Part shown: positions 58,926 through 59,121 of the stretch, in pieces | Position numbering within the stretch: position 1 is the stretch's first letter | Layout of the letters: every line of letters starts with the position of its first letter | Assembly: GCA_964016885.1 (NCBI GenBank) | Contig: OZ024759.1 | Location: forward strand, 36,952,001 to 37,016,000 | Length of the DNA: 64,000 bases | Reading direction: 5' to 3' | DNA from: Eledone cirrhosa | Taxonomy: Eukaryota | Translations under genes and position numbers: made by a program | Notes under the pieces: generated by a model | What the model was told of the DNA's origin: nothing | Databases searched by the model: none | What the model saw: only the letters and a program-made list of their open reading frames with translations

Positions 58926-58928
<3 letters not shown>

Positions 58929-59118
58929 AACAAGTAAGACCCCGACGGCTGAGCTCAAGCCGTTTCGACGGCTAATTCTGGACTAGTCCAGAATTAGCCG
59001 ACGAAACGGCTTCAGCTCTGCCGTCGGGGTCATACTTGTTCCTATTACCCACTCTACTACCCTAAGTATTGAGTACTTTGGTGCGTTATGGTCCATCTGG
59101 TTCCTTACCACATTTCCT

Positions 59119-59121
<3 letters not shown>
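58926..59121. mobile_element. Family C element, palindromic head centred on GGACTAGTCC
   Basis: 58927-59042 forms a near-perfect inverted repeat; the tail runs to 59121. Further small C fragments at ~25092-25170 and ~59892-59962. Confidence 0.8.

Follow-up and report, generated by a model that had tools for sequence, protein, structure and literature searches.

The element described here occupies positions 58926..59121 of a 64,000-nt stretch of DNA from Eledone cirrhosa (GenBank assembly GCA_964016885.1, contig OZ024759.1, positions 36,952,001 to 37,016,000 of the forward strand), which is AT-rich, of animal type and about half microsatellite (52% masked), and which we refer to as the window. 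It is one copy of a repeat, family C, whose copies are non-coding, and it leads from a (TA)n tract through a short minus-strand arm (58927-58984) and a long plus-strand arm (58985-59121) into a second (TA)n tract. Positions within arms are counted from the G of the GAAA box, taken as +1. The features of the locus are as follows.

58898..58926: (TA)n target, left side, read from the sequence
58927..58984, minus strand: short inverted arm, extending from -18 on the inner side to the fixed outer site TTCC/TA (+40 to +43)
58938..58966, minus strand: half hammerhead of the short arm, matched with 0 mismatches and made up of GAAA, stem III and its palindromic loop, GUC and the presumed 3' strand of stem I
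58985..59045, plus strand: portion of the long arm mirrored by the short arm
58985..58994, plus strand: inner limit and predicted loop II, the loop by analogy with Hydra-clade hammerheads
58995..59002, plus strand: predicted stem II 3' strand, the partner strand being absent
59003..59031, plus strand: half hammerhead of the long arm (GAAA 59003-59006, stem III, GUC 59023-59025, presumed stem I 3' strand 59026-59031)
59046..59121, plus strand: one-sided tail, such that about 80 nt separates the two fixed outer ends
59064..59078, plus strand: tail hairpin, whose motif recurs in sister family A and is seen by eye in Hydra-2_Amil
59122..59196: (TA)n target, right side, read from the sequence
59201..59416: copy of sister family A, adjoining the focal copy, with the same two-arm layout and a complete type I hammerhead

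The arms of the focal copy (58924-58984 against 58985-59045) are 93% complementary without any spacer, and the short arm has about 3 nt in common with the adjoining TA run. The centre of the fold-back hence lies between 58984 and 58985 rather than at 58980, where an earlier note on this DNA had placed the inversion. Folded as RNA, the palindrome has a computed energy of -96.8 kcal/mol.

Distribution and layout of family C

A 29-nt motif of the family was matched eight times in the window at up to 3 mismatches, compared with no match in 100 shuffles, and relaxed searches of the window recovered the stem III-GUC-GGGGTC part in 13 arms at nine loci (3.3k, 12.4k, 15.7k twice, 20.6k, 25.1k, 44.2k twice, 50.7k twice, 52.3k and 59.0k twice). 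Partial and tail-only copies, at 56.8k and 59.9k respectively, bring the family to 11 loci, in agreement with the earlier note, which had counted about 11; nine of these carry the motif as written there. Four loci are near-symmetric fold-backs (59.0k, 50.7k with a T-rich spacer of 19 nt, 15.7k and 44.2k), four are asymmetric (12.4k, 25.1k, 52.3k and 59.9k) and three are single arms. Besides the focal copy, the following were delimited.

3253..3350, plus strand: subfamily 2 single arm, from about -13; distal tail differs
12340..12483: asymmetric copy; short arm to -18, long arm from +42
15658..15837: subfamily 2 copy, fold-back at about -18; distal tail differs
20541..20668, plus strand: single long arm, starting within stem III
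25088..25165: subfamily 2 copy; short arm and a 12-nt piece of the opposite arm
44118..44315: subfamily 2 copy, fold-back at about -13/-14
50641..50861: both arms end at -18; T-rich spacer of 19 nt
52294..52422: asymmetric copy; short arm from +2, long arm from +37
56722..56828, minus strand: single long arm, from +17
59893..59966, plus strand: tail alone, apart from a stub of the short arm

In the window the copies are dispersed as single or inverted arms, without the tandem units, each with a whole type I hammerhead, by which a non-LTR retrozyme would be recognized. The subfamily 2 long arms at 3253-3420 (plus strand) and 15640-15774 (minus strand) have a common distal tail that differs from that of the other copies and extends beyond the usual end; a 129-codon frame at 3268-3657, at the first of these arms, had no Pfam match. 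The copy at 25.1k is adjoined by the remnant of a mariner (Mos1-type) transposase helix-turn-helix (25224-25631, plus strand; Pfam HTH_48, E=1.1e-12). The window also contains an abundant SINE-like repeat (44317-44444, 5289-5466, 6300-6466, 58695-58779 and others), which has GGGGTC without a fitting CUGANGA and which is presumably typical of octopus genomes.

Ends of the arms and abundance

Both outer ends of the family are fixed. Among the short arms, six can be aligned up to +43, which by eye is also where a seventh, at 44.2k, stops; the long arm ends at +123 in eight of ten cases, the remaining two having a different distal tail. The two ends lie 80 nt apart and both abut (TA)n, and in reads of other individuals (TA)n likewise follows the short end (1231 and 1360 RAD reads; 3020 reads and 94 contigs in further runs). 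The picture of the ends drawn in the earlier note was right as to the inner stop and incomplete in two respects, since it omitted these two fixed outer ends as well as sister family A with its complete type I hammerhead.

None of the arms at the 11 loci extends more than about 18 nt 5' of GAAA. Five arms of subfamily 1 end exactly at -18; those of subfamily 2, read from printed alignments, end at about -18 (two arms) or about -13/-14 (four arms); and the copies at 52.3k, 20.6k and 56.8k start at or after +2. A stop some 10-20 nt 5' of GAAAC had been noted before for the copies that extend upstream. The base homologous to -18 is attained by subfamily 2 in 88 contigs and 1651 reads, and in the window by the copy at 15.7k. 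In 114 contigs the alignment is clipped exactly at the inner limit, and the letters preceding it are unrelated and AT-rich (agreement 0.45). The 19-nt T-rich spacer at 50702-50720 separates two arms, each of which ends at the limit, and three contigs also enter T-rich letters ahead of it; these letters are perhaps untemplated additions at the end of a cDNA. A splice acceptor at the inner end was considered and rejected, the arms keeping the AG. The AGTY found there is initiator-like, and it is not counted as support.

Family C is very abundant. To it were aligned 17,903 of 12.5 million and 26,868 of 12.6 million RAD reads, counts that are biased by the many molecules ending at one site within the element, and, among contigs, 14,580 of 16.3 million in one run and 19,200 of 17.1 million in another. 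Only two contigs aligned in a run from another organism, and first scans of metagenomes, viral contigs and GTDB genomes yielded no match in any of them; ten metagenome matches to a 19-mer were rejected as chance, all of them being GC-rich (56-74%) and without family context. Family C is a real, abundant family of end fragments of the type left by Penelope-like elements (PLEs).

The probable 3' half of a hammerhead

The motif presents the GAAA box, stem III with A15.1-U16.1 and the UH site of a hammerhead. Stems I and II are not closed: only their presumed 3' strands are there, and no partner strand was found in the copies or in the window. Exact CTGANGA does not occur on either strand of the 11 loci, as the earlier note had already remarked for the CUGANGA box; one TTGAAAA in the flank of the 15.7k copy is out of register. 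A descriptor scan of the window found no whole hammerhead in family C, Rfam gave nothing in the window at its gathering score, and 25 weak Rfam matches near the focal copy were to hairpins and TA runs and to no ribozyme family. Single arms fold no better than shuffles (five pieces, z from -0.34 to 0.41). The segment aligns with the intact hammerhead of sister family A, and is likely to be the 3' half of a type I hammerhead; the earlier identification of GAAA box, stem III with palindromic loop, GUC and plausible stem I 3' arm can be retained. Judged by their sequences, the copies themselves are not hammerhead ribozymes, the half being a passive remnant that would be unable to cut.

Other folds were considered and rejected. 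Scrambled hammerheads (SGC, CSG and GCS), as described in PMC10085705, need the blocks C, G and S in altered order, and block C is absent from family C; the same absence disposes of a type II hammerhead. Twister and HDV-like folds, sought by eye against their consensi, were dropped because the candidate positions differ between the subfamilies.

The two subfamilies differ at 5 of 16 decided positions in predicted loops and at 1 of 28 in stems or core (Fisher p=0.018, in a post hoc test of five and six arms in which 3 of 47 positions were undecided), and the sole stem or core difference retains a G-U pair; GAAA, GUC and the stems are kept between them. Such loop-biased differences are as expected if the parents retained the whole ribozyme, suggesting that parents with a whole ribozyme exist. 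No full-length parent with the missing half was found in the window, reads or contigs, and among the loose ends listed (19 of 473 and 12 of 334) no shared sequence upstream of the limit was seen; a rare parent might lie among the remainder. A 30-letter upstream consensus of the 1651 RAD reads was rejected as a parent; it contains neither CUGANGA nor a stem I partner, and the contig run did not match it. Pfam searches of 21 of the 67 unmasked frames and two others gave no match to a reverse transcriptase or GIY-YIG domain, the only match being the mariner-type helix-turn-helix.

A sister family with complete hammerheads

Six whole type I hammerheads were recognized in the window by the descriptor scan; five belong to family A and one to another family. 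A third hammerhead-like motif (CUGAUGA, short stem II, GAAA) at 55945-56020 (plus strand) belongs to another repeat family. Copies of family A lie at 6930-7125, 12190-12325, 18715-18910, 43900-44100, 52035-52220, 59201-59416, 3107-3225 and 58470-58541. They too show the two-arm layout in (TA)n. Their outer ends lie near +35 to +41 and +106 to +108, whereas the inner ones fall between -26 and -16, at or after the stem I 5' strand; no shared upstream sequence is seen in the letters printed before -26, where the reference began. In the alignment, GAAA, stem III with its palindromic loop and UH of family A fall on those of family C, and the tail motif is common to both (by BLAST alone, E=0.28). 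The two families stand side by side at 5 of the 11 family C loci, mostly in one TA run (3.2k/3.3k, 12.2k/12.4k, 44.0k/44.2k, 52.1k/52.3k and 59.0k/59.3k).

The distance from the inner end to the tail motif is 83 and 83 nt in both subfamily 1 long arms of family C, and 83, 83, 83, 84 and 85 nt in five long arms of family A, an agreement within two families for which the family A starts were set by hand and two shorter family A long arms (ending at -16) and five shorter family C forward arms were excluded. Three subfamily 2 arms gave 87, 81 and 68 nt. The part of the ribozyme at which the limit falls differs, being loop II in family C and stem I in family A. Since the distance to the tail motif is alike while the position within the ribozyme is not, the start of an RNA fits better than a stall at stem II, and we lean towards a defined RNA 5' end as the origin of the inner limit.

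Comparison with known Penelope-like elements

According to PMC8557442 (Craig et al. 2021), PLE insertions consist of an inverted 5'-truncated copy with a one-sided tail of 30-40 bp, and the Hydra clade targets (TA)n and always has a hammerhead, several members having stems II of 7 bp, loops of 7-10 nt and a C before GAA. Family C resembles this clade, which belongs to the C-terminal EN+ PLEs, in its (TA)n target, its predicted stem II/loop II geometry and the closeness of its half hammerhead to the 3' end; it differs in that no ORF is seen here, that only the 3' half of the hammerhead is present and that the tail measures about 80 nt instead of 30-40. The 18 nt before GAAA would supply a loop and stem II 3' strand of the Hydra type, so that the inner limit would lie, by analogy with these hammerheads, where loop II is expected. 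Family A shows the CUGAUGA-U...U-GAA pattern of the Hydra table of the same source. Among the six consensi shown there, the tail motif is seen by eye in Hydra-2_Amil, at a similar distance from GAAA, and in looser but recognizable form in Hydra-2_Ajap and Hydra-1_Amil; of the other three, two end before it and one is weak. The label 'HHR_half_core' in PMC8557442 denotes CUGANGA with a distant GAAA and is hence not the same thing as family C, which lacks CUGANGA. A text search of the supplement with three short family C motifs gave no match; family C is thus not one of the consensi of that work. On sequence grounds, then, layout, target and tail motif match those of Hydra-clade PLEs; by protein, family C cannot be filed in that clade, and it works like a PLE inverted-plus-tail insertion.

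Further likenesses extend to other PLEs. Minimal type I hammerheads of PLEs, as given in PMC4209133 (Cervera and de la Pena 2014), share with family C a palindromic loop III, a helix II of 7-8 bp, G10.1-C11.1 and the occurrence of motif pairs on opposite strands, the difference being that family C is devoid of CUGANGA and of the 5' strands of stems I and II. The inverted 5'-truncated pLTR of EN+ PLEs (PMC3846280, PMC8557442) is likewise a head-to-head inverted copy with a tail on one arm and a palindrome at the junction. For the palindromes at such inverted junctions PMC3846280 proposes self-priming; in family C, however, the inner end is almost constant and falls within the ribozyme, and the asymmetric joints favour two cDNAs. 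In vitro, the Poseidon PLE of Anolis cuts and extends both strands at AT-rich DNA, with two internal initiation sites whose spacing equals the tail and with uncleaved RNA as template (PMC11167929, Frangieh et al. 2024); it belongs to another clade with another spacing, and a fixed 5' limit in a hammerhead is not described in the available text. PLEs are listed in an octopus genome in PMC13282606, where the accessible text mentions neither hammerheads nor palindromes. The origin of the inverted copy with its tail, and the role of the hammerhead, are named as open questions in PMC8557442 and PMC11167929. The architecture of family C is therefore a variant of a known PLE layout, and the noteworthy part is the nearly fixed inner limit inside the ribozyme, of which the literature searched, with subscription papers and Repbase outside the search, holds no description.

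Origin of the palindromes

The joints between arms bear directly on how the palindromes arise. At 12.4k an inverted arm reaching -18 meets a forward arm from +42, and at 52.3k the forward arm starts at +37. Among opposite-strand joints in reads, 9 of 12 have an inverted arm ending at 58985-58991 and a partner starting at 59022-59082; among further joints (15 of 20 listed), 11 of 13 have an inverted arm that stops no later than 50727 and a partner that starts at 50774-50807. In these the inverted arm reaches or comes near the limit, and the partner begins 40-95 nt further on, in many cases beside the short outer end. Two joints starting exactly after GUC were left unused, one being explained by the stem III repeat and the other represented by one contig. 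L1 elements with 5' inversions are explained by twin priming, in which the second primer comes from the other target strand. Family C would be alike in that an inverted 5' part made from a second-strand primer abuts the start of the forward part, and would differ in that the second priming site is fixed and the products can overlap fully. We infer that the palindromes are two cDNAs, primed at two sites from both sides of the cut and joined at their 3' ends, which explains all forms; the asymmetric copies could in part be later deletions of palindromes.

On balance, we consider it probable that family C was written by the reverse transcriptase of a PLE, probably of the Hydra clade, which primed from both ends of a cut (TA)n target at two sites on an RNA that probably begins inside the hammerhead. 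The endonuclease of the element would cut both strands of the (TA)n target, and one DNA end would prime at the internal site, where a TA match would help, whereas the other would do so 80 nt further 3'. Extension of both cDNAs would proceed toward the 5' end of the RNA. Where the far one displaces the near one, each would run off the template at -18, and the two 3' ends would then be joined, either bluntly or via self-complementary TA/CTAG. Run-off and joining would yield a head-to-head palindrome with a one-sided tail, and a far cDNA stopping near the first primer would yield an asymmetric copy. The start at -18 might be set by a promoter in a terminal repeat or by cleavage of the RNA a set number of nucleotides away from the tail hairpin, and a whole ribozyme would be likely only where the body of the parent precedes the repeat. 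The Penelope of D. virilis speaks against a start inside the hammerhead, its RNA starting about 120 nt upstream of it. An internal promoter has been mapped in that element (PMC2377424), and the downstream promoter motif is, as read from the sequence, absent from the matching place in family C.

The same priming events on a longer RNA would have to be combined with a reverse transcriptase that halts once it meets the 5' strand of stem II, be it at a folded or protein-bound ribozyme or at a cDNA hairpin, a snap-back of the cDNA being one form of this; we regard such an origin as unlikely. It gains from the coincidence of the limit with the predicted border of stem II and loop II in the geometry of Hydra-clade hammerheads (PMC8557442), from family A, which too stops at a helix (stem I), from six contigs in which an arm that begins at the limit is fused to an inverted one whose end lies in the stem II strand, and from the self-priming proposed for PLE palindromes in PMC3846280. 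Yet two structures, stem III (-7.1 kcal/mol) and an alternative hairpin (-7.5 kcal/mol), are traversed by the enzyme before it reaches the limit, and the read-through into shared upstream sequence that a stall should leave is seen in none of the loose ends listed. Snap-back in particular, which the earlier note had advanced as the cause, would predict symmetric centres in which the loop forms a spacer; the focal copy has no spacer there, many junctions are asymmetric with the partner 40-95 nt on, and the fixed outer end of the inverted arm is left unexplained. Nor need stem II be the long hairpin supposed there, some 8 bp being expected by analogy. Decidedly improbable, in our view, is a truncation that occurred once, such that the family descends from a shortened or already palindromic master, transcribed from host promoters and possibly nicked in the loop of its hairpin, and a parent with the whole ribozyme is now unneeded. 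That no upstream half turned up in the sequences examined, that the focal palindrome folds strongly as RNA (with the energy given above) and that non-autonomous PLE derivatives are described (PMC8557442; preprint 10.64898/2026.07.22.740005) would suit such a master; the subfamilies, however, keep stems and core and differ in loops, which would be needless had the 5' half been lost long ago, and there is no A-to-G change among 23 substitutions in 11 arms, hence no sign, by ADAR marks, of a double-stranded template.

To two further explanations we give very little credence. A functional half might be completed in trans by an RNA with the stem I 5' strand, CUGANGA and the stem II 5' strand, as the earlier note had offered in the alternative; the conservation of GAAA, GUC and stems between subfamilies, the dimer that the loop III palindrome allows on paper (predicted at -30.7 against -14.2 kcal/mol) and the five loci where family A adjoins family C could be read in this way. 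No trans partner was found in the window, though: CUGANGA with a fitting stem I strand gave 26 matches at 2 mismatches versus 17.7 expected and none exact, the best of the 26 being family A, whose stem I differs. The conservation, moreover, is explained by the parent, and any near-palindrome dimerises on paper. Least credible of all is a DNA transposon (MITE) or fold-back element resembling a hammerhead by chance. The hairpin shape, the TA flanks and the mariner-type remnant in the window bring it to mind, and target-site duplications of family C are unreadable inside (TA)n runs; the termini, however, are not inverted repeats (8 of 30 positions identical, at most 11 over 13 offsets), by which this reading is already largely refuted. 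The inverted repeat is instead internal and one-sided, the inner ends vary as in retroposed copies, and sister family A has a whole hammerhead in the same position. The earlier view of the element as RNA-derived rather than a MITE is upheld by the lack of terminal inverted repeats.

Implications

No new ribozyme is shown here, and the architecture was already known. What family C offers, if it was indeed written by two-site priming on an RNA starting inside the hammerhead, is a very abundant family with three fixed coordinates, that is, two priming sites and one inner limit, and hence sharp tests of the RNA start, of two cDNAs versus snap-back and of a bypass of the ribozyme by the copied template. 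For annotators it is of importance that such hairpins are liable to be filed as MITEs or overlooked in ribozyme searches. It is tempting to go further and to propose, as a possibility that we ourselves hold to be doubtful, that Hydra-type PLEs make an RNA of about 140 nt starting about 84 nt upstream of the conserved tail hairpin, irrespective of the ribozyme segment in which that position falls; the RNA of family C would then start inside the hammerhead, would be unable to cut itself and would be copied from both ends of a DNA break. If true, the hairpin repeats would constitute a genome-wide fossil map of the RNA start and of both priming sites, comparable to the strong-stop DNA of LTR elements.
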